DNA of 64,000 nt. Source: Candidatus Omnitrophota bacterium. GTDB lineage: Bacteria; Omnitrophota; Gorgyraeia; Gygaellales; Profunditerraquicolaceae. Position 1 is the stretch's first letter, and each line of letters starts with the position of its first letter. Shown piece after piece: positions 4,364 to 24,845 of the stretch. The stretch spans positions 4,433 through 68,432 of the forward strand of contig JAOAET010000015.1 in the NCBI GenBank assembly GCA_026416665.1, in the 5' to 3' direction. The notes beneath the pieces are model-generated. The model worked only from the letters and a program-made list of their open reading frames with translations, did no database searches and had not been told where the DNA came from. The translations under genes and the position numbers were made by a program.

Positions 4364-4442
4364 TTTCCTTTTAGAAGAAATTGGTTATAGAAAAATGGGG
4401 GATTTTAAAATAGTATTTTAACAAAAAAAATTTAATAAAAAA

Positions 4443-14476: not shown

Positions 14477-15115
14477 CTACTCTTTAGTCAAACTTATTTC
14501 ATTACGCACAATTGTATTGTCTTTACGGATACCTAAACCGAATCTTTTTCTTTTTAAATAATCTATATGTCGACACTTAAGTTCACTAATCTCGCCATTA
14601 AAACTAAACTCATCACTATCACCAATTAGAACAACCGTTGAATTTAGCTGTTGGTATCTTTTTATCCCCATATCTATTAAACCCTTATAAAGGGCGTAAG
14701 AAGTCTGACCACCTGTTTTTGTAGGTGGGGTATTATCTTTGGGACAAGATATCAAGTTTAAATCAAACTCAGCTAATGTATAAATAAACGGTTCAGCAAA
14801 AGCTATTGAACAAGAAGTTATATATTCGGATAAACCACTTAATTTGATTATACGGCGTTTATTATTCAGTTGAGAACAAGCGTATGAAAAATATCTCTTC
14901 GGTAAGTGACTAAGCGACTGTGGGCCATAATCATGGTCAAGCATATACAGATCCAACGCATGTTTTATTAAACGTAGATTGGCTTCACAGGTCTTTGCTT
15001 TAGAATTCTCTACCCATTGGGCCAAGGGAATCAATGCAAGAAAGCTGATAATTCCTAGAATAACGATAGTTGTCAGAATTTCTAAAAAAGTAAAACTCTT
15101 TCCGTTAGATCTCAT
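14477..15115 (-). CDS. Prepilin-type N-terminal domain protein (pseudopilin or type IV pilin-like).
   Basis: N-terminus MRSNGKSFTFLEILTTIVILGIISFLAL carries a G/FTxLE-like cleavage and methylation motif followed by a hydrophobic helix. Confidence 0.5.
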   Translation of the reverse strand: MRSNGKSFTFLEILTTIVILGIISFLALIPLAQWVENSKAKTCEANLRLIKHALDLYMLDHDYGPQSLSHLPKRYFSYACSQLNNKRRIIKLSGLSEYITSCSIAFAEPFIYTLAEFDLNLISCPKDNTPPTKTGGQTSYALYKGLIDMGIKRYQQLNSTVVLIGDSDEFSFNGEISELKCRHIDYLKRKRFGLGIRKDNTIVRNEISLTKE

Positions 15116-17796: not shown

Positions 17797-18093
17797 CTAT
17801 GCCTTGGTGGTAAGATTAAGAATCAAAAATCGCAAAATACTTTCATTAAGTTTCAACGTATTTCTTATTCTGGCAACCGCATGCGGATTAACATTAAAAT
17901 GAATAAGGTAATATACACCTTCTTGTTTTTTCTTTATAGGATAAGCAAGTTGCCTTCTTTCAGACCATAAATTAGAATCGATTACTTTGCCTTCGTTTTT
18001 AGTAATAGTTTCTTGAATAAAATTAATAAGTTGGCTACGCTCATTATCTGAAAGTCCTGCGTCTAAAATAATCATTGCTTCATACTTATTCAT
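17797..18093 (-). CDS. rpsF: 30S ribosomal protein S6.
   Basis: MNKYEAMIILDAGLSDNERSQLI...EGVYYLIHFN, in the canonical rpsF-ssb-rpsR-rplI arrangement. Confidence 0.9.
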   Translation of the reverse strand: MNKYEAMIILDAGLSDNERSQLINFIQETITKNEGKVIDSNLWSERRQLAYPIKKKQEGVYYLIHFNVNPHAVARIRNTLKLNESILRFLILNLTTKA

Positions 18094-18673
18094 TGTTTCC
18101 CTCTCTTCTTTTGTTGATCATCGCCATCGTTTTATCTATCCCTTCTTTTAACCAAAAATCTATTGCAAAACAAGCATGCTCAATAACCTCACCCAATCTT
18201 TGTTGCTCTTGAGTAGTAAAAGGTGAAAGTACATAATCTGCAGGTTCAGTTTTTGGTGTCGGTCTTCCAATTCCTATGCGCAAGCGACAAAATTCCTCAG
18301 TTCCTAAGTAGTTTATTATTGACTCTATACCATTATGCCCTGCAGAAGAACCACCGAGCTTAACTTGAATTCTCCCTAAGGGAAAATCCATATCATCGTG
18401 AACTATTAAAAGATCACGGCCATTAATACGATTTTTCTTGACTAATCTTGACACTACTGTCCCCGATAAATTCATATAAACTAAAGGTAAAGCTATAATC
18501 CCTCCAATTCCTTCATCTTTTTTTATCGTTGCAATAAATGCTTTCTGCCAAAAAACATATTTAAAATTAATCTGCTGTTCTTTAACATAAGCCCGAATAA
18601 CCGTAGCACCAATATTATGCCTGGTAGAAAGATAACGCCTGCCAGGATTTCCTAAGCCAACTACCAGTTTCAT
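18086..18673 (-). CDS. pth: Peptidyl-tRNA hydrolase.
   Basis: MKLVVGLGNPGRRYLSTRHNIGATVI, and a GGSSAGHNG-like motif in the form LGGSSAGHNGIESI. Confidence 0.9.
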   Translation of the reverse strand: MKLVVGLGNPGRRYLSTRHNIGATVIRAYVKEQQINFKYVFWQKAFIATIKKDEGIGGIIALPLVYMNLSGTVVSRLVKKNRINGRDLLIVHDDMDFPLGRIQVKLGGSSAGHNGIESIINYLGTEEFCRLRIGIGRPTPKTEPADYVLSPFTTQEQQRLGEVIEHACFAIDFWLKEGIDKTMAMINKRREGNNE

Positions 18674-18695: not shown

Positions 18696-19367
18696 TTATT
18701 TGCTTTCGGGCGTAGAAGTTTCCTTTACCTCTTCTTTCTTCTCCTTAATTACCTCTGGTTCTTTTAATTCCTCACCTTCAGCAGGAGCAGTTATTTCTTC
18801 TTTCATTGGAGCAGAAACAGCTACAACCACTGCTTCAGGGTCAGATAAAATCTTAACTTTTGGAGGACAGATTATTTCTTTAACATGTACGGCTTCACCA
18901 ATTTTAAGATGGGATATATCAACCTCAATATGTTTGGGTATATCTGTGGGTAAACACTCTACTTCTATCTGCCACATTACTACTTCTAAAGATCCACCTT
19001 CTTGCTTAACTCCAACGGCTTCACCAACTGTTACAACAGGGACATTAACTTTTAATGTCTTAGTCAAAGATATCTCATGGAAATCAATATGAAGGATGTC
19101 GCCATGAACAGGGTCGTATTGTATCTCTTTAATCATACAGGAACGCGATTTTTTCTTATCATCTTTAATATGTAAGTTAATAATAGCGTTCTCCAACCTA
19201 TGATGGTGATACAAAGTCAAGAACTCATGTCTTGATACCTTTATGGGTAAAGACTCTGTACCATTAGAATACACCACTGCAGGAATAAATCCTAACTTCT
19301 TCATTGCCTTGACTTCACTTCGTCCAATCTCTTGCCTTGGTTGAGCTTCTAGTATGAGGTTTTCCAT
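18696..19367 (-). CDS. rplY: 50S ribosomal protein L25 / general stress protein Ctc.
   Basis: EAQPRQEIGRSEVKAMKKLGFIPAVVYSNG, with an acidic C-terminal extension of the Ctc type. It lies between pth and prs. Confidence 0.85.
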   Translation of the reverse strand: MENLILEAQPRQEIGRSEVKAMKKLGFIPAVVYSNGTESLPIKVSRHEFLTLYHHHRLENAIINLHIKDDKKKSRSCMIKEIQYDPVHGDILHIDFHEISLTKTLKVNVPVVTVGEAVGVKQEGGSLEVVMWQIEVECLPTDIPKHIEVDISHLKIGEAVHVKEIICPPKVKILSDPEAVVVAVSAPMKEEITAPAEGEELKEPEVIKEKKEEVKETSTPESK

Positions 19368-19424: not shown

Positions 19425-20375
19425 CTAATTTCTGTGGTCATCAAAAAGACAACTAATAGATTCCTCATTATGAATACGTTTAATTGCTTCACCCATTAAG
19501 GATGCAATAGATAAAACTTTAATTCTTGGGTGCTGTTTTTTAGGCGGTAAAGGTATACTATCAGTAATAACTAATTCTTTTAAATCTTTACATTCATCAA
19601 TACGTTGCACAGCAGGACCAGAAAGCACTCCGTGAGAGATGGTTGCCCTTATCGAACGACACTTAGCCCTTTTAAGTGCCTGCACCGCTTCAATCAAAGA
19701 GCTACCCGTAGCAATCAAATCATCTACAATTACAGCATCTTTTCCCGTTACCTTACCAAGGATATGCATTACCTCTGTCTTATCTGGAGAATCCCTACGC
19801 TTATCAATTACTGCTAAAGCTGCACCCAATTTCTTAGCATAAGCACGAGCCATTTTAATTGAACCGACGTCAGGTGAAACTACAACCATATTCTTTGTAG
19901 CAAATTTTTTAAGATAATCTATAAAAACATTTATAGCAAAAAGATGGTCTACAGGTATATCAAAAAAACCCTGAATTTGTCCAGCATGTAAATCCATCGT
20001 AAGAATACGACTTGCACCAGCTACTGTTAAAAGATTTGCCACAAGTTTTGCTGTAATAGGAACCCGAGGTTGGTCTTTGCGGTCTTGTCTGGCATAACCA
20101 AAATAAGGTATCACCGCAGTAATACGACTGGCAGAGGCACGTTTTAAGGCGTCAATCATAATCAAAAGTTCCATTAACATATCATTAGGAGGTGTACAGG
20201 TTGACTGTATGACAAAAACATCTTTGCCACGAACATTCTCATTAATCTTAACACGCGTCTCCCCTTCACTGAATTGGCTAACTAAAGCGTCGCCTAAAGG
20301 AATATTAAGATAATCACAGATAGCCTTAGCTAACTTAGGATTAGAGTTACCTGTAAAAATCTTTAGTTTATCCAT
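19425..20375 (-). CDS. prs: Ribose-phosphate pyrophosphokinase.
   Basis: MDKLKIFTGNSNPKLAKAICDYL, a PRPP-binding loop VVSPDVGS, and a DDLIATGSSL-like motif. Confidence 0.9.
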   Translation of the reverse strand: MDKLKIFTGNSNPKLAKAICDYLNIPLGDALVSQFSEGETRVKINENVRGKDVFVIQSTCTPPNDMLMELLIMIDALKRASASRITAVIPYFGYARQDRKDQPRVPITAKLVANLLTVAGASRILTMDLHAGQIQGFFDIPVDHLFAINVFIDYLKKFATKNMVVVSPDVGSIKMARAYAKKLGAALAVIDKRRDSPDKTEVMHILGKVTGKDAVIVDDLIATGSSLIEAVQALKRAKCRSIRATISHGVLSGPAVQRIDECKDLKELVITDSIPLPPKKQHPRIKVLSIASLMGEAIKRIHNEESISCLFDDHRN

Positions 20376-20377
20376 AA

Positions 20378-21640
20378 CTACCTCATCTTCGTCTTTATTG
20401 GTTTTGCAGGCACTCCCACAACCGTTGTAAAGTCATCTACATTTTTATTTCTGGTAACCACACTTCCTGCTCCGGTTCTGGCTTGCTTACCCACCACCAC
20501 TGGTGCTACCAATACTGTATCTGAACCAATAAAGGCTTTATCCTTAATAATCGTTGTGTTTTTATGTTTTCCATCGTAATTAGCAGTTACTGTTCCTGCT
20601 CCAATATTTACGGAATGCCCCAGACGTGCGTCTCCTAAAAAACCAAAGTGTTTTGCTCTACTACCTGAAGCAATTTTAGTGCGGGAGATTTCAATAAAAT
20701 TACCCACTGTTACAAAATCATCAAGCCTTGTTCCAGGTCTTAACCGAGCAAAAGGTCCCACTGAACAATGGCTACCAATTTTAACATCCTTTTCAATAAC
20801 TGTAAAGGGATAAATTACGGTGTCTGTCCCTATCTTTGCATCCCAGCTTATAAAGGTAGAGTCAGGATCAACAATAGTAACACCGTTTTTCATTAAATTT
20901 TCTTGAATACGCTGTTGCATTATTTTGTTAGCATAGGCAAGTTCAACACGAGAATTTACTCCCATTACTTCTTTCGGGTCATCAGCTTTTATTGATTCAA
21001 CTACATATTCATCTTTATATAGCATTTCTATAATATCAGTAAGATAATACTCTTTTTTTGCATTGTTAGGTTTAATTCTTTTTATATAGCGTGCTAATTT
21101 TTCTCTCTCAAAACACAATATCCCCGTATTGATTTCTTTTATTGTCTTTTGGTATTCATCCGCATCCTTATCCTCGACAATACCACAGATAACATCATAA
21201 GAATCACGCAAAATTCTACCATACCCATCTGGCTTATCCATCTGGGCAGTAAGCAGGGTTGCCGCAGCCTTTGTCTCAGTATGATGCGCTATTAACTTTT
21301 TAACGGTATCAGGTTTTAATAAAGGATTATCACCATAAAGCACAATCACTGTTCCTCTAAAACCTGAAAGAAGTGGCAAAGCCTGCTTTACCGCATCAGC
21401 GGTTCCAAGGATGTTGCGTTGAATTGCTACACTGGCGGAGGCAGGTAAAAATGCCTTTACCTGCTGATATTGATACCCAACTACAACAACGTATCTTTTA
21501 ATCCGCAGTTGTTTAACAAGGTCAAGCACGTAACCTAACATTGGACGGCAGGCAACTTCATGCAGAACCTTTGGTTTGTCTGACTTCATTCGCTCCCCCT
21601 TACCTGCTGCCAATATAATCGCTGCTATAGAATTTTTCAT
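20378..21640 (-). CDS. glmU: Bifunctional GlcNAc-1-P uridyltransferase / GlcN-1-P acetyltransferase GlmU-like.
   Basis: N-terminal nucleotidyltransferase motif AIILAAGKGERMKSDKPKVL and a C-terminal hexapeptide-repeat acetyltransferase domain. It sits upstream of prs. Confidence 0.8.
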   Translation of the reverse strand: MKNSIAAIILAAGKGERMKSDKPKVLHEVACRPMLGYVLDLVKQLRIKRYVVVVGYQYQQVKAFLPASASVAIQRNILGTADAVKQALPLLSGFRGTVIVLYGDNPLLKPDTVKKLIAHHTETKAAATLLTAQMDKPDGYGRILRDSYDVICGIVEDKDADEYQKTIKEINTGILCFEREKLARYIKRIKPNNAKKEYYLTDIIEMLYKDEYVVESIKADDPKEVMGVNSRVELAYANKIMQQRIQENLMKNGVTIVDPDSTFISWDAKIGTDTVIYPFTVIEKDVKIGSHCSVGPFARLRPGTRLDDFVTVGNFIEISRTKIASGSRAKHFGFLGDARLGHSVNIGAGTVTANYDGKHKNTTIIKDKAFIGSDTVLVAPVVVGKQARTGAGSVVTRNKNVDDFTTVVGVPAKPIKTKMR

Positions 21641-21665
21641 ATTAAATTAAATTTACGATTTCAAC

Positions 21666-21737
21666 TGGGACGTCTGGACTCGAACCAGAATAGCGAGACC
21701 CAAATTCTCGTGTCCTACCAATTGGACGACGTCCCAA
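21666..21737 (-). tRNA. tRNA-Gln (anticodon TTG).
   Basis: Reverse complement reads TGGGACGTCGTCCAATTGGTAGGACACGAGAATTTGGGTCTCGCTATTCTGGTTCGAGTCCAGACGTCCCAG. The acceptor stem is TGGGACG/CGTCCCA, the anticodon stem is CGAGA/TCTCG with loop ATTTGGG, and the T-arm is TCTGG flanking TTCGAGT then CCAGA. Confidence 0.7.
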
Positions 21738-21747
21738 AATCTTCTTT

Positions 21748-22161
21748 TTACTCGTCTCCAGTTGCTTTTGCTGCTTTCGGTCCCTTTTTTACTTCCTCTT
21801 CATAGGCTGCCAGAACCTTCTTTTGTAACAACTGGCGGAATTCTTGCGTAATTGGATGGGCAATATCCTTGTGTTCCATCTGAGCGGTATTTTCGTTACT
21901 TTGCGCCTGCTGCTTACTGTTTGCAGGTAATTGCATGCCACATTGGTTGCAGAACTTAGCTCGTGCCTCGTTTTTAAAACCGCACTTTGGACAAGGATAT
22001 TTTACCTTACGCGAAGGCATGGCAATAAAAAGACCACTTGACCCCTGAATCACTTTGATATTTCTTACTACAAAAGCATTGTCAAGAGTTATCGTGGCAT
22101 AAGCCTTTAGTTTCTTGTCAGGTGAATCCTTAAGAAAAACTCTTACCTCAGTAATCTCCAT
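21748..22161 (-). CDS. spoVG: SpoVG-family protein carrying an inserted zinc-ribbon (CxxC...CxxC) segment.
   Basis: MEITEVRVFLKDSPDKKLKAYATITLDNAFVVRNIKVIQGSSGLFIAMPSRK and a later DIAHPI match the conserved SpoVG core. An insertion of about 40 aa containing CPKCG...CNQCG sits between them. I prefer the MEITEV start at 22161. Confidence 0.8.
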   Translation of the reverse strand: MEITEVRVFLKDSPDKKLKAYATITLDNAFVVRNIKVIQGSSGLFIAMPSRKVKYPCPKCGFKNEARAKFCNQCGMQLPANSKQQAQSNENTAQMEHKDIAHPITQEFRQLLQKKVLAAYEEEVKKGPKAAKATGDE

Positions 22162-22184: not shown

Positions 22185-23072
22185 TTAGATGCTGTAAGCA
22201 AAAAATACTTTATTCCTGAAACTATTATGCAAACGGTTAAAAACTCTCTCAGCCTCCTTTCGTAAAGTAAATATCCCATATACCGCCAAGCCACTACCAC
22301 TCATCAGAACCGTCTTCGCACCCGCTGCAAGCAATTTACTTTTCGCTTCTTTTAATTGTGGATATAAAATTTCAGCAACTGGTTCTAAACTATTAGATAT
22401 TTCTTTAGTTAAAGCCGAGATGTTTTTATTTTTTAACGCTAAACAAATAAGTTTAGCATTAGTTCTTTTTTTTGTCAACCTTAAACTAGGAAATTTATCC
22501 CACGCCGCATAAATTTCAGCAGTTGACTTCTTTTTTGCTATTACTAGTATTACATGCCAAAGTCTTATTCTGTTTAATTCTGCTAAAGGTATTACTATCT
22601 GTCCCTTTCCTTTCACCCAAGCAAAGCGACAACCGTAGATAAAAAAAGGCACATCTGCACCAATATGAGAACCTATCTTAATCAACTGTTGTAAGGTTAA
22701 ATTAAGCCTCCACATTTTGTTTAATCCAATTAGAACCGTCGCTGCATTACTTGAACCACCACCCATACCACTGGCTACGGGAATATTTTTTTCTATACAT
22801 ATATCTATTCCTTTATCTATTTTGTAAAGTTGTTTAAGAAATAAAGCACTCTGATAAGCAAGATTAGTCTTATCGGTGGGAACCTCAGTGTTGTTAACCT
22901 TAACAGTGACAAAACTATCTTCTCGAGAGATAAGAGTTATCTTATCTACTAAACTGATTCTTTCAAAGAGACTGTTAAGGCAATGGTATCCGTCCGGACG
23001 TTTTCTTAGCACAGACAAAGAGAGGTTTAACTTAGCAAATGAATCAAGAGTAAGTATTCTTGTGTCAAACAC
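22185..23072 (-). CDS. ispE: 4-diphosphocytidyl-2-C-methyl-D-erythritol kinase.
   Basis: GHMP kinase motifs: LNLSLSVLRKRPDGYH and PVASGMGGGSSNAAT. Confidence 0.85.
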   Translation of the reverse strand: MFDTRILTLDSFAKLNLSLSVLRKRPDGYHCLNSLFERISLVDKITLISREDSFVTVKVNNTEVPTDKTNLAYQSALFLKQLYKIDKGIDICIEKNIPVASGMGGGSSNAATVLIGLNKMWRLNLTLQQLIKIGSHIGADVPFFIYGCRFAWVKGKGQIVIPLAELNRIRLWHVILVIAKKKSTAEIYAAWDKFPSLRLTKKRTNAKLICLALKNKNISALTKEISNSLEPVAEILYPQLKEAKSKLLAAGAKTVLMSGSGLAVYGIFTLRKEAERVFNRLHNSFRNKVFFAYSI

Positions 23073-23073
23073 G

Positions 23074-24015
23074 TTATGTAAGAAAAGACGATACTGCGTT
23101 TTCTATATCAGCGGAGGTCAAATTGTATTCACGTAAAAGCTCATCGGGTTCACCTGATTGGCCAAACTTATTTTTTATATTAACCTGCCTTATTCTCACA
23201 GGATAACTTTCTGTAACTACTTCTTGAACCGCAGAAGCAAGACCGCCTACGTTGGAATGTTCTTCACAGACTACAATTCCAGAACACTGCTTTGCAGAAG
23301 TAATAATAGCTTCTTTATCTAAAGGAGAAATAGTGTGCATATTTATTACTCTTACTTTTATGCCCTTTTTAGCCAAGTTATCTGCTGCCTGTAAAGCCTC
23401 ATAGACCATAATACCACAAGCAATAATAGCGGCGTGTTTACCTTCACGCAAGATTTGTGCCTTACCAAAAATAAACTTAGGTTTATTTTCTACAGTGGGA
23501 ACTTTACAACGTGCAAGACGGATATAGAATGGGCCACTAGTTTTAGCAGCGGTCTCAACAGCATCTTTTGTCTGCGGACCGTCACAAGGAATAATAATAT
23601 TCATATAGGGAATTGCCCGCATAAGACAAATATCTTCTAAGGCCTGGTGGCTAGAACCATCGGGTCCTACAGTAATACCTGCATGGCTGGCAACAATCTT
23701 TACATTAAAATTATTATAGGCAATGGTGTTTCTAATCTGCTCCCAAGCCCGACCCGTGGCAAACATTGCAAAACTGGAGGCAAAGACAATCTTACCACAT
23801 GAGGCAAGACCTGCCGCAGTAGCCATCATATTTTGTTCTGCTACCCCAAAGTTAAAAAACCGAGTGGGAAACTCTTTGGCAAACATAGCGGTTTTCGTTG
23901 AAGTAGATAAATCTGCATCTAATACCACTAATTCTGGTATTATTTTACCCAGTTCTACTAATGTTTTACCGTATATGTCACGTTGATGTATAAATTCTGC
24001 CATACTTATGCGCAC
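23074..24015 (-). CDS. Transketolase, C-terminal subunit (pyrimidine-binding and C-terminal domains).
   Basis: 313 aa covering the transketolase pyrimidine-binding and C-terminal domains (FGVAEQNMMATAAGLA). It is paired with an upstream N-terminal subunit ORF. Confidence 0.85.
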   Translation of the reverse strand: MRISMAEFIHQRDIYGKTLVELGKIIPELVVLDADLSTSTKTAMFAKEFPTRFFNFGVAEQNMMATAAGLASCGKIVFASSFAMFATGRAWEQIRNTIAYNNFNVKIVASHAGITVGPDGSSHQALEDICLMRAIPYMNIIIPCDGPQTKDAVETAAKTSGPFYIRLARCKVPTVENKPKFIFGKAQILREGKHAAIIACGIMVYEALQAADNLAKKGIKVRVINMHTISPLDKEAIITSAKQCSGIVVCEEHSNVGGLASAVQEVVTESYPVRIRQVNIKNKFGQSGEPDELLREYNLTSADIENAVSSFLT

Positions 24016-24845
24016 TCTGTATCTTGTTCTAACTCTTTATAAGCTTTTGCTGCCTCTTCATTAGTAGGTGCACAACCGTGAAAATTACAAACATTCTCCA
24101 TAAAAGAAACCCCTTTCCCTTTAGTTGTTCGTGCAATGATTACAGTGGGTTTACCTTTATAATTTTTTGCTGCATCAAATGCCTCAAGAATTTGACGCAT
24201 ATTATGCCCATCGATTTCTATAGTATACCAACCAAATGCCTGCCATTTGGCAACAAGAGGCTCAAGATTCATTATCTCATTAGTTCTGCCGTCTATCTGA
24301 AAACCATTATAATCTACGATTGCACAGAGATTGTCGCACTTATAATGGCTGGCAGCCATAGCTGCCTCCCAAATATTTCCTTCTTGAATTTCACCGTCAC
24401 CCATTAAACAATATACTCGATAATCTTTTTTATCAATCTTGCCAGCAAGACTCATACCTAAAGCAACAGATAAACCTTGTCCCAATGAACCAGAAGCTAC
24501 CTCTACCCCTGGTGTGCGACGGTCAGGATGCCCCTGAAGAATTGACCCTAATTTACGAAGATTTGTTAACTCTCCTTTAGGGAAAAATCCTCTATCTGCA
24601 AGCACGGCATACCACAAAGGACAACAATGCCCCTTGGATAAGTGAAAACGGTCACGGTCAGGCCATTGAGGTTCGTTAGGCCGATGGCGCAAAACTACAT
24701 AGTAAAGAGCAACTACTATATCCGTAGCAGAAAGGCTTCCTCCAGGGTGTCCCGAGCATGCCCTACAAATCATCTCAATAATCTGCTTTCTAATCTGGCG
24801 TGCCTTTTTTTCTAATTCTTTAATTTGCTTGTCATCTATCTCCAT
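24006..24845 (-). CDS. Transketolase, N-terminal subunit (TPP-binding).
   Basis: SGHPGGSLS and CLMGDGEIQEGNIWEA are TPP-binding motifs. The 279-aa ORF overlaps the C-terminal subunit ORF by 10 nt. Confidence 0.85.
   Translation of the reverse strand: MEIDDKQIKELEKKARQIRKQIIEMICRACSGHPGGSLSATDIVVALYYVVLRHRPNEPQWPDRDRFHLSKGHCCPLWYAVLADRGFFPKGELTNLRKLGSILQGHPDRRTPGVEVASGSLGQGLSVALGMSLAGKIDKKDYRVYCLMGDGEIQEGNIWEAAMAASHYKCDNLCAIVDYNGFQIDGRTNEIMNLEPLVAKWQAFGWYTIEIDGHNMRQILEAFDAAKNYKGKPTVIIARTTKGKGVSFMENVCNFHGCAPTNEEAAKAYKELEQDTECA

Follow-up and report, generated by a model that had tools for sequence, protein, structure and literature searches.

The spoVG locus and its insertion

The window analysed here, a stretch of 64 kb (positions 4,433 to 68,432 of contig JAOAET010000015.1, assembly GCA_026416665.1, from a Candidatus Omnitrophota bacterium), encodes a member of the SpoVG family, widespread and poorly understood global regulators that bind DNA and RNA, in which a short loop is replaced by a 39-residue insertion carrying a four-cysteine (Cys4) zinc ribbon. 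The insertion itself is already known, having been published in 2012 as a signature indel of the Planctomycetes. New here are its identity as a Cys4 ribbon with a predicted NZF/RanBP2-like fold, its presence in Omnitrophota and its position between the mapped determinants of nucleic-acid binding. The window protein is the Omnitrophota orthologue of SpoVG, itself a nucleic-acid-binding regulator, and an identical protein is deposited at NCBI as MCX7926766.1 ("septation protein SpoVG family protein", Candidatus Omnitrophota). The gene and the segments of its product are located as follows, in window coordinates:

21748..22161, minus strand: spoVG coding sequence from ATG 22161 through the stop codon, product of 137 aa
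22168..22174, minus strand: Shine-Dalgarno AAGGAGG, 6 nt 5' of ATG 22161, read from the sequence
22006..22161, minus strand: SpoVG N-terminal beta-sheet core, residues 1-52, aligned to chain 4-54 of 2i9z/2i9x
22006..22011, minus strand: basic doublet R51-K52 at the end of the N-terminal core, equivalent to S. aureus K50/R51
21889..22005, minus strand: whole insertion, residues 53-91, the gap between the phmmer blocks
21925..22002, minus strand: Cys4 zinc ribbon, residues 54-79 (C57, C60, C71, C74), supported by PF13240, the invariant cysteines and the model
21877..21924, minus strand: variable linker, residues 80-95, predicted disordered and with low column conservation
21850..21876, minus strand: EHKDIAHPI, residues 96-104, where the canonical sequence resumes, aligned to EFRDIAHPI of 2i9z
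21784..21846, minus strand: C-terminal SpoVG helix, residues 106-126

The list of open reading frames (ORFs) puts the start of spoVG at an upstream ATG (22185). We place the true start at ATG 22161 (MEITEV...), because AAGGAGG lies 6 nt upstream of it and because MEITE is the N-terminus of every homologue.

An earlier note on this DNA had described an intact SpoVG core with a CPxCG...CxxCG zinc ribbon inserted between AMPSRK and DIAHPI, and the description holds in each of its parts. The SpoVG profile PF04026 matches residues 1-122 over its full length (positions 1-82 of 82; 101.6 bits against a cut-off of 29.6), and the SpoVG fold, a beta-sheet followed by a C-terminal helix, is unchanged around the insert. 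The conserved signatures of the family are kept, namely the basic doublet R51-K52 after AMPS and the DIAHPI helix start (D99-I104), with D99, A101, H102 and P103 invariant in the EHKDIAHPI segment. The NCBIfam SpoVG equivalog NF009749 scores 99.6 bits, just under its cut-off of 108, because the insertion splits the match in two stretches.

The insertion point was defined by phmmer alignment to solved SpoVG structures (S. epidermidis 2i9z/2i9x and B. subtilis), which yielded two blocks: residues 1-52 of the query align to chain 4-54, and residues 92-128 to chain 55-91. Residues 53-91 (39 aa) are therefore extra, and they fall exactly at the short loop of SpoVG. In canonical proteins (B. subtilis 2ia9, S. 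epidermidis 2i9z/2i9x) the loop at this site is short, about 4-8 residues (TPDG or RRDG), in contrast to the 39-aa ribbon plus linker of the window protein, and canonical relatives carry PSRKRRDGTFQDIAHPI at the insertion site.

The insert is made up of the ribbon, about 26 aa in length, and the disordered linker of about 13-16 aa. The ribbon has the cysteine spacing C-x2-C-x3-N-x6-C-x2-C. In the whole protein, Zn_Ribbon_1 (PF13240) matches residues 57-77 with 27.8 bits against a cut-off of 25 (E-value 2e-6), while PF12773 (24.9 bits, cut-off 27.3) and the RanBP2-type PF00641 (19.3 bits, cut-off 27) stay below threshold. Scanned alone, the ribbon segment scores 31.7 bits with PF13240, 28.3 with PF12773 and 23.1 with PF00641. 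PF13240 and PF12773 (Zn_Ribbon_1/DZR) thus form the sequence family of the inserted module, the double zinc ribbons of DZANK1 being its best solved sequence relatives. Ribbons of these two families are usually terminal in larger, often membrane-anchored proteins, whereas here the ribbon is nested in the loop of a small domain.

Codons 54-95 (21877..22002, minus strand; KYPCPKCGFKNEARAKFCNQCGMQLPANSKQQAQSNENTAQM) lie within a single uninterrupted ORF. A frameshift or misassembly that joined a separate zinc-ribbon ORF to spoVG, which the earlier note had named as a possible source of error, was rejected on the grounds that the frame stays open throughout and that the SpoVG sequence continues in frame beyond the insert. 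Such an artefact of assembly or annotation has practically no credibility: the identical architecture is found in at least 353 species genomes, including the complete chromosome of Ca. Velamenicoccus archaeovorus, and in more than 8000 protein clusters.

The insertion is framed by residues of known importance. According to Jutras et al. 2013, a basic doublet is essential for DNA binding (K50/R51 in S. aureus SpoVG, R53/R54 in B. burgdorferi SpoVG) and six helix residues set DNA sequence specificity (S66-E71 in S. aureus, Q69-A74 in B. burgdorferi). The equivalent of the six-residue stretch in the window protein, mapped by the phmmer alignment, is approximately Q106-L111. The insertion starts directly after R51-K52, the ribbon one residue later, and ends about 15 residues ahead of the specificity helix.

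Conservation and distribution

Conservation was assessed over three sets totalling 390 relatives, one from Omnitrophota and two from Planctomycetota. The exact cysteine spacing is present in 389 of the 390, down to about 45% identity, and none of the four cysteines varies among the 120 closest clusters (70-79% identity); the cysteines are thus conserved in orthologues, and their spacing is conserved far beyond chance. An exhaustive HMMER search over 1.84 billion representatives returned 5184 matches. Among the best 150 of these, about 45-60% identical overall, 149 have C-x2-C-x10-C-x2-C, the first cysteine is almost always at residue 57, and the minority of matches with organism names all belong to Omnitrophota or Planctomycetota (the latter including MBI4718753.1 and MEK7270698.1). 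A profile search brought in at least 8000 clusters and added Anaerohalosphaera lusitana and Phycisphaerae.

Genomes were scanned at one per GTDB species with ribbon peptides as seeds, so that the scan cannot reveal Omnitrophota without the ribbon. At least 353 genomes hold a relative; the best 80 are almost all labelled Omnitrophota and include the Velamenicoccus chromosome. For several genomes (L003, L004, L008, L012, L031, L061 and others) the label reads uncultured Planctomycetales, Patescibacteria group or Margulisiibacteriota, and their SpoVG shares 70-75% identity with the window protein and lies in the gene order of Omnitrophota; they are probably Omnitrophota metagenome-assembled genomes under a wrong taxonomic label.

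These results extend a published description. Gupta, Bhandari & Naushad 2012 (Front Microbiol 3:327, PMC3444138) report that all sequenced Planctomycetes carry, within a conserved stretch of SpoVG, an insert of 32-36 aa, which they state to be absent elsewhere and propose as a marker of the phylum; the words zinc and cysteine do not occur in the article, the insert is given no function there, and OP3/Omnitrophota genomes are not included. The signature concerns the same protein family, and Planctomycetota-named proteins share the insertion point, the cysteine spacing and N64, R67, N72, G75 and L78, the insert being 39 aa long here against 32-36 aa in Planctomycetes. Its restriction to Planctomycetes does not hold, given the window protein and the species genomes above. 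The ribbon is also flagged by automatic annotation: precomputed Pfam lists give PF13240, PF12773 and PF00641, and one relative is named "zinc-ribbon domain-containing protein" at NCBI. Full-text literature searches that paired SpoVG with a zinc ribbon or zinc finger, or with either phylum, returned no functional study and one unrelated co-mention.

Conservation of the ribbon reaches beyond its ligands. Across the three sets the four cysteines are conserved at 100%, N64 at 97-100%, G75 at 85-100%, R67 at 83-100%, L78 at 85-98%, N72 at 77-99% and K63 at 70-100%. Averaged over each set, the ribbon carries a net charge of +4.0 (Omnitrophota) or of +3.6 and +3.0 (the two Planctomycetota sets). When diverse insert segments were scanned, PF12773 matched 85 of 85, PF13240 77 of 85 and PF00641, at E ≤ 0.01, 45 of 85.

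Omnitrophota and Planctomycetota have the insertion in common as an old lineage trait, maintained by vertical descent. Computed on the core only, identity is 57-61% to ribbon-bearing Planctomycetota and 51-56% to canonical SpoVGs, values that differ only slightly; the case for a single origin is consequently built chiefly on an insertion point and a ribbon sequence that are identical, and not on a tree. The insertion is ancient and, by its conservation pattern, under purifying selection.

It could be argued that the ribbon is a tolerated and largely neutral lineage marker, inserted once and kept since losing the zinc module would destabilise the protein, with no effect on the binding or role of SpoVG. 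Its description solely as a signature indel would fit this, as would a surface-exposed loop around which the SpoVG fold is unchanged and a linker that is variable and disordered. We nevertheless find such neutrality improbable: K63, N64, R67, F/Y70, N72, G75 and L78 are conserved across two phyla despite about 45-60% identity, this non-ligand conservation exceeds what maintenance of the fold should need, and 389 of the 390 sampled relatives show no loss.

A divergent clade of ribbon-bearing SpoVGs (P0214, P0263, P0410-P0425) was also observed, with AMPAKK in place of AMPSRK, the motif CFKCGYKN and GRPVLQVDVAHPI; this clade might extend the insertion to a further lineage.

Predicted structure of the ribbon

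Two AlphaFold2 models were examined, the second built on a 79-sequence alignment. In the second model, the predicted local distance difference test (pLDDT) score is 82-89 for the beta-sheet core (residues 1-52), 77-84 for the ribbon (residues 54-79) and about 92 for the helix (residues 106-126); in both models it falls below 50 for residues 82-100, and the linker is predicted to be disordered. Structure prediction, which the earlier note had suggested, accordingly returns a folded ribbon made of two short hairpins.

The isolated ribbon model superposes at 0.7-1.1 Å over 24-27 residues on solved Cys4 fingers, namely Trabid NZF1, the TAB2 NZF, Nup153, RanBP2, HOIP NZF1, ZRANB2 finger 2 with RNA and the ArnA ribbon, with E-values above 1 for these short matches, which indicate a fold class and do not constitute statistical evidence. 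On the models, the insert is best described as a zinc ribbon of predicted NZF/RanBP2-like fold. The cysteine pattern predicts a Zn(Cys)4 site, and zinc binding itself is inferred from the sequence.

The spacing C-x2-C-x3-N-x6-C-x2-C is common to the SpoVG ribbon and to NZF/RanBP2 fingers, including ZRANB2 (3g9y), a single-stranded RNA (ssRNA) binder whose RNA contacts, among them the stacking of W79 between two guanines, are described in PMC11789483. We confirmed the ZRANB2 sequence against 2k1p/3g9y and mapped its residues by cysteine register:

ZRANB2 W79: E65 (H in Planctomycetota), not kept
ZRANB2 D68: K54, not kept
ZRANB2 N76: F62, not kept
ZRANB2 R82: A or S at position 68, not kept
ZRANB2 R81: R67, kept (100/83/98% in the three sets)
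ZRANB2 N86: N72, kept (99/77/97% in the three sets)

Position 65 is E in 97% of the Omnitrophota set and H in 58-99% of the Planctomycetota sets, and the SpoVG ribbon, unlike RanBP2-type fingers, has no Trp before the first cysteine. Assignment as a ZRANB2-type ssRNA finger was thus rejected, the key Trp and three of the five base-contacting side chains being missing and PF00641 scoring under its cut-off. For these reasons the ribbon falls outside the ZRANB2-like subgroup, and the resemblance is one of fold only.

Possible function of the ribbon

A folded zinc module kept between two mapped binding determinants in Planctomycetota and Omnitrophota amounts to a natural experiment on the SpoVG pocket. 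The canonical SpoVGs of S. aureus, B. burgdorferi and L. monocytogenes have been shown to bind DNA and RNA, and, given where the ribbon lies with respect to the residues that Jutras et al. 2013 mapped, it is plausible that the ribbon alters the nucleic-acid binding of SpoVG.

We favour the reading that the ribbon is an auxiliary nucleic-acid contact beside the SpoVG pocket, enlarging or clamping the site, to which we assign a probability of roughly 0.45. Its uniform positive charge, its conserved non-ligand surface residues and its position between the mapped determinants are the reasons for this preference. Mechanistically, the ribbon starts one residue past R51-K52, the doublet that contacts the nucleic-acid backbone in characterised SpoVGs, and the flexible linker would tether it just ahead of the specificity helix. 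Being basic (about +4), it may provide a second nucleic-acid contact through the conserved surface residues K63, N64, R67, K/R69, F/Y70 and N72, with the putative Zn(Cys)4 site keeping it in shape. The enlarged or clamped site could then have a changed affinity or target preference for RNA, single-stranded DNA or DNA.

Several points weigh against an auxiliary nucleic-acid contact. We know of no established nucleic-acid-binding role for PF13240/PF12773 ribbons, and for the best structural twins of the insert, the NZF and RanBP2 fingers, the ligands are mostly proteins, ubiquitin and Ran among them. Most of the residues that give ZRANB2 its ssRNA binding are replaced (Trp79 by Glu65, together with D68, N76 and R82), the positive charge is equally compatible with an acidic protein partner, and the second model (predicted template modelling score 0.58) does not fix well how the ribbon is oriented with respect to the core. 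Our literature searches found no binding, metal or genetic data on ribbon-bearing SpoVGs.

The Planctomycetota relatives differ from the window protein in their extensions. Many ribbon-bearing SpoVGs of this phylum measure 200-430 aa and have disordered tails that are acidic or RG-rich (P0121-P0270, P0274-P0393). Three tail motifs recur in them: PGY[KRV]P after the helix, [ST]EYD[AS]LIA[DE]L[KR] in the middle of the tail (54 of 150 representatives) and F[GS]AGI[LF] at the C-terminal tip (58 of 150 representatives). The Omnitrophota protein, at 137 aa, is without the acidic or RG-rich tail and has none of the three motifs, including SEYDALIADLK and FGAGIL.

Such tails, disordered and carrying short conserved linear motifs (SEYDALIADLK, FGAGIL), are typical of interaction hubs, and they lend some colour to a protein-docking role for the ribbon, which would recruit SpoVG to a partner (RNA polymerase, the ribosome, an RNase or a division protein, for example) or serve higher-order assembly, with the core alone binding nucleic acid. 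The nearest solved folds point the same way, being the ubiquitin- or Ran-binding NZF/RanBP2 fingers and the ribbon of ArnA in the ArnAB complex (0.7-1.1 Å), and PF13240-type ribbons are not known as nucleic-acid binders. Docking nonetheless seems to us unlikely, if worth keeping in mind, for it comes without a known partner, the ribbon sits at the mapped nucleic-acid pocket and is consistently basic, and the tail motifs are missing from the Omnitrophota protein, so that the hub idea does not transfer to it directly.

In bacterial regulators such as RsrA and Hsp33, a Cys4 zinc site serves as a redox switch. By analogy, the Zn(Cys)4 site of the ribbon might sense zinc or redox state, thiol oxidation or zinc limitation unfolding the ribbon and thereby switching SpoVG activity; in its favour, the four cysteines are invariant and the ribbon adjoins the binding pocket. 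We regard a switch as a long shot, given that the neighbouring genes are housekeeping genes and offer no supporting context, that Cys4 ribbons are mostly structural and that such a switch would rarely fire in the anoxic habitats of many Omnitrophota and Planctomycetota.

A broader picture can be sketched, which we hold to be doubtful as a whole: SpoVG of Planctomycetota and Omnitrophota would be a two-part nucleic-acid binder with targets unlike those of Firmicute and spirochaete SpoVGs and an activity that is perhaps zinc- or redox-dependent, and the shared insertion, as a rare genomic change, would tie Omnitrophota specifically to Planctomycetota within the Planctomycetes-Verrucomicrobia-Chlamydiae (PVC) group. 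The occurrence of the ribbon in Omnitrophota in any case corrects its published exclusivity to Planctomycetes and supplies a discrete character for placing Omnitrophota. The practical weight of the feature is limited, as both published work and automatic annotation already record it; it has no phenotype attached and belongs to mostly uncultured organisms.

Genomic context

spoVG lies in a run of genes on the same strand, in the order hisG, a tetratricopeptide repeat (TPR) protein, a putative split transketolase, ispE, spoVG, tRNA-Gln(UUG), glmU, prs, L25 (ctc) and pth, with ssb, L9 and dnaB beyond pth. The neighbours were named by Pfam unless stated otherwise:

24006..24845, minus strand: candidate transketolase N-terminal half, named by translation and position
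23074..24015, minus strand: candidate transketolase C-terminal half, named by translation and position; overlaps the ORF of the N-terminal half
22185..23072, minus strand: ispE (GHMP kinase; GHMP_kinases_N/C), ending 10 nt before the spoVG Shine-Dalgarno
21664..21737, minus strand: tRNA-Gln (UUG), between spoVG and glmU inside an otherwise protein-coding cluster, found by ARAGORN
20378..21640, minus strand: glmU, named from translation and position and not by family scan
19425..20375, minus strand: prs
18696..19367, minus strand: L25/ctc
18086..18673, minus strand: pth
14477..15115, minus strand: 212-aa ORF adjoining dnaB, with no Pfam match at E ≤ 1e-5

A tblastn comparison of 80 Omnitrophota loci recovered the same ispE-spoVG-glmU-prs-L25-pth order throughout, complete in 49 and cut by contig ends in the others, and the putative split transketolase pair is kept beside ispE in Omnitrophota loci. 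No second spoVG copy, canonical or other, was found within the window.

The earlier note had raised the possibility that the insertion correlates with a position upstream of glmU-prs, and this link was rejected. The order is the general context of SpoVG, spoVG-glmU-prs-ctc-pth being found in B. subtilis too, and that agreement in gene order marks the window gene as an ordinary SpoVG orthologue in its ordinary place, the insertion not being tied to position. A ribbon-bearing SpoVG of Phycisphaerae, moreover, has no glmU downstream; in Anaerohalosphaera the ispE-spoVG adjacency is also present and the genes downstream differ.

Other SpoVG architectures

A further arrangement was encountered among the proteins surveyed, a 388-aa protein (P0127, representing a 118-member cluster) in which four canonical SpoVG domains, none with a zinc ribbon, follow one another in tandem. 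It occurs on many contigs and is named "DNA-binding cell septation regulator SpoVG" in one source.
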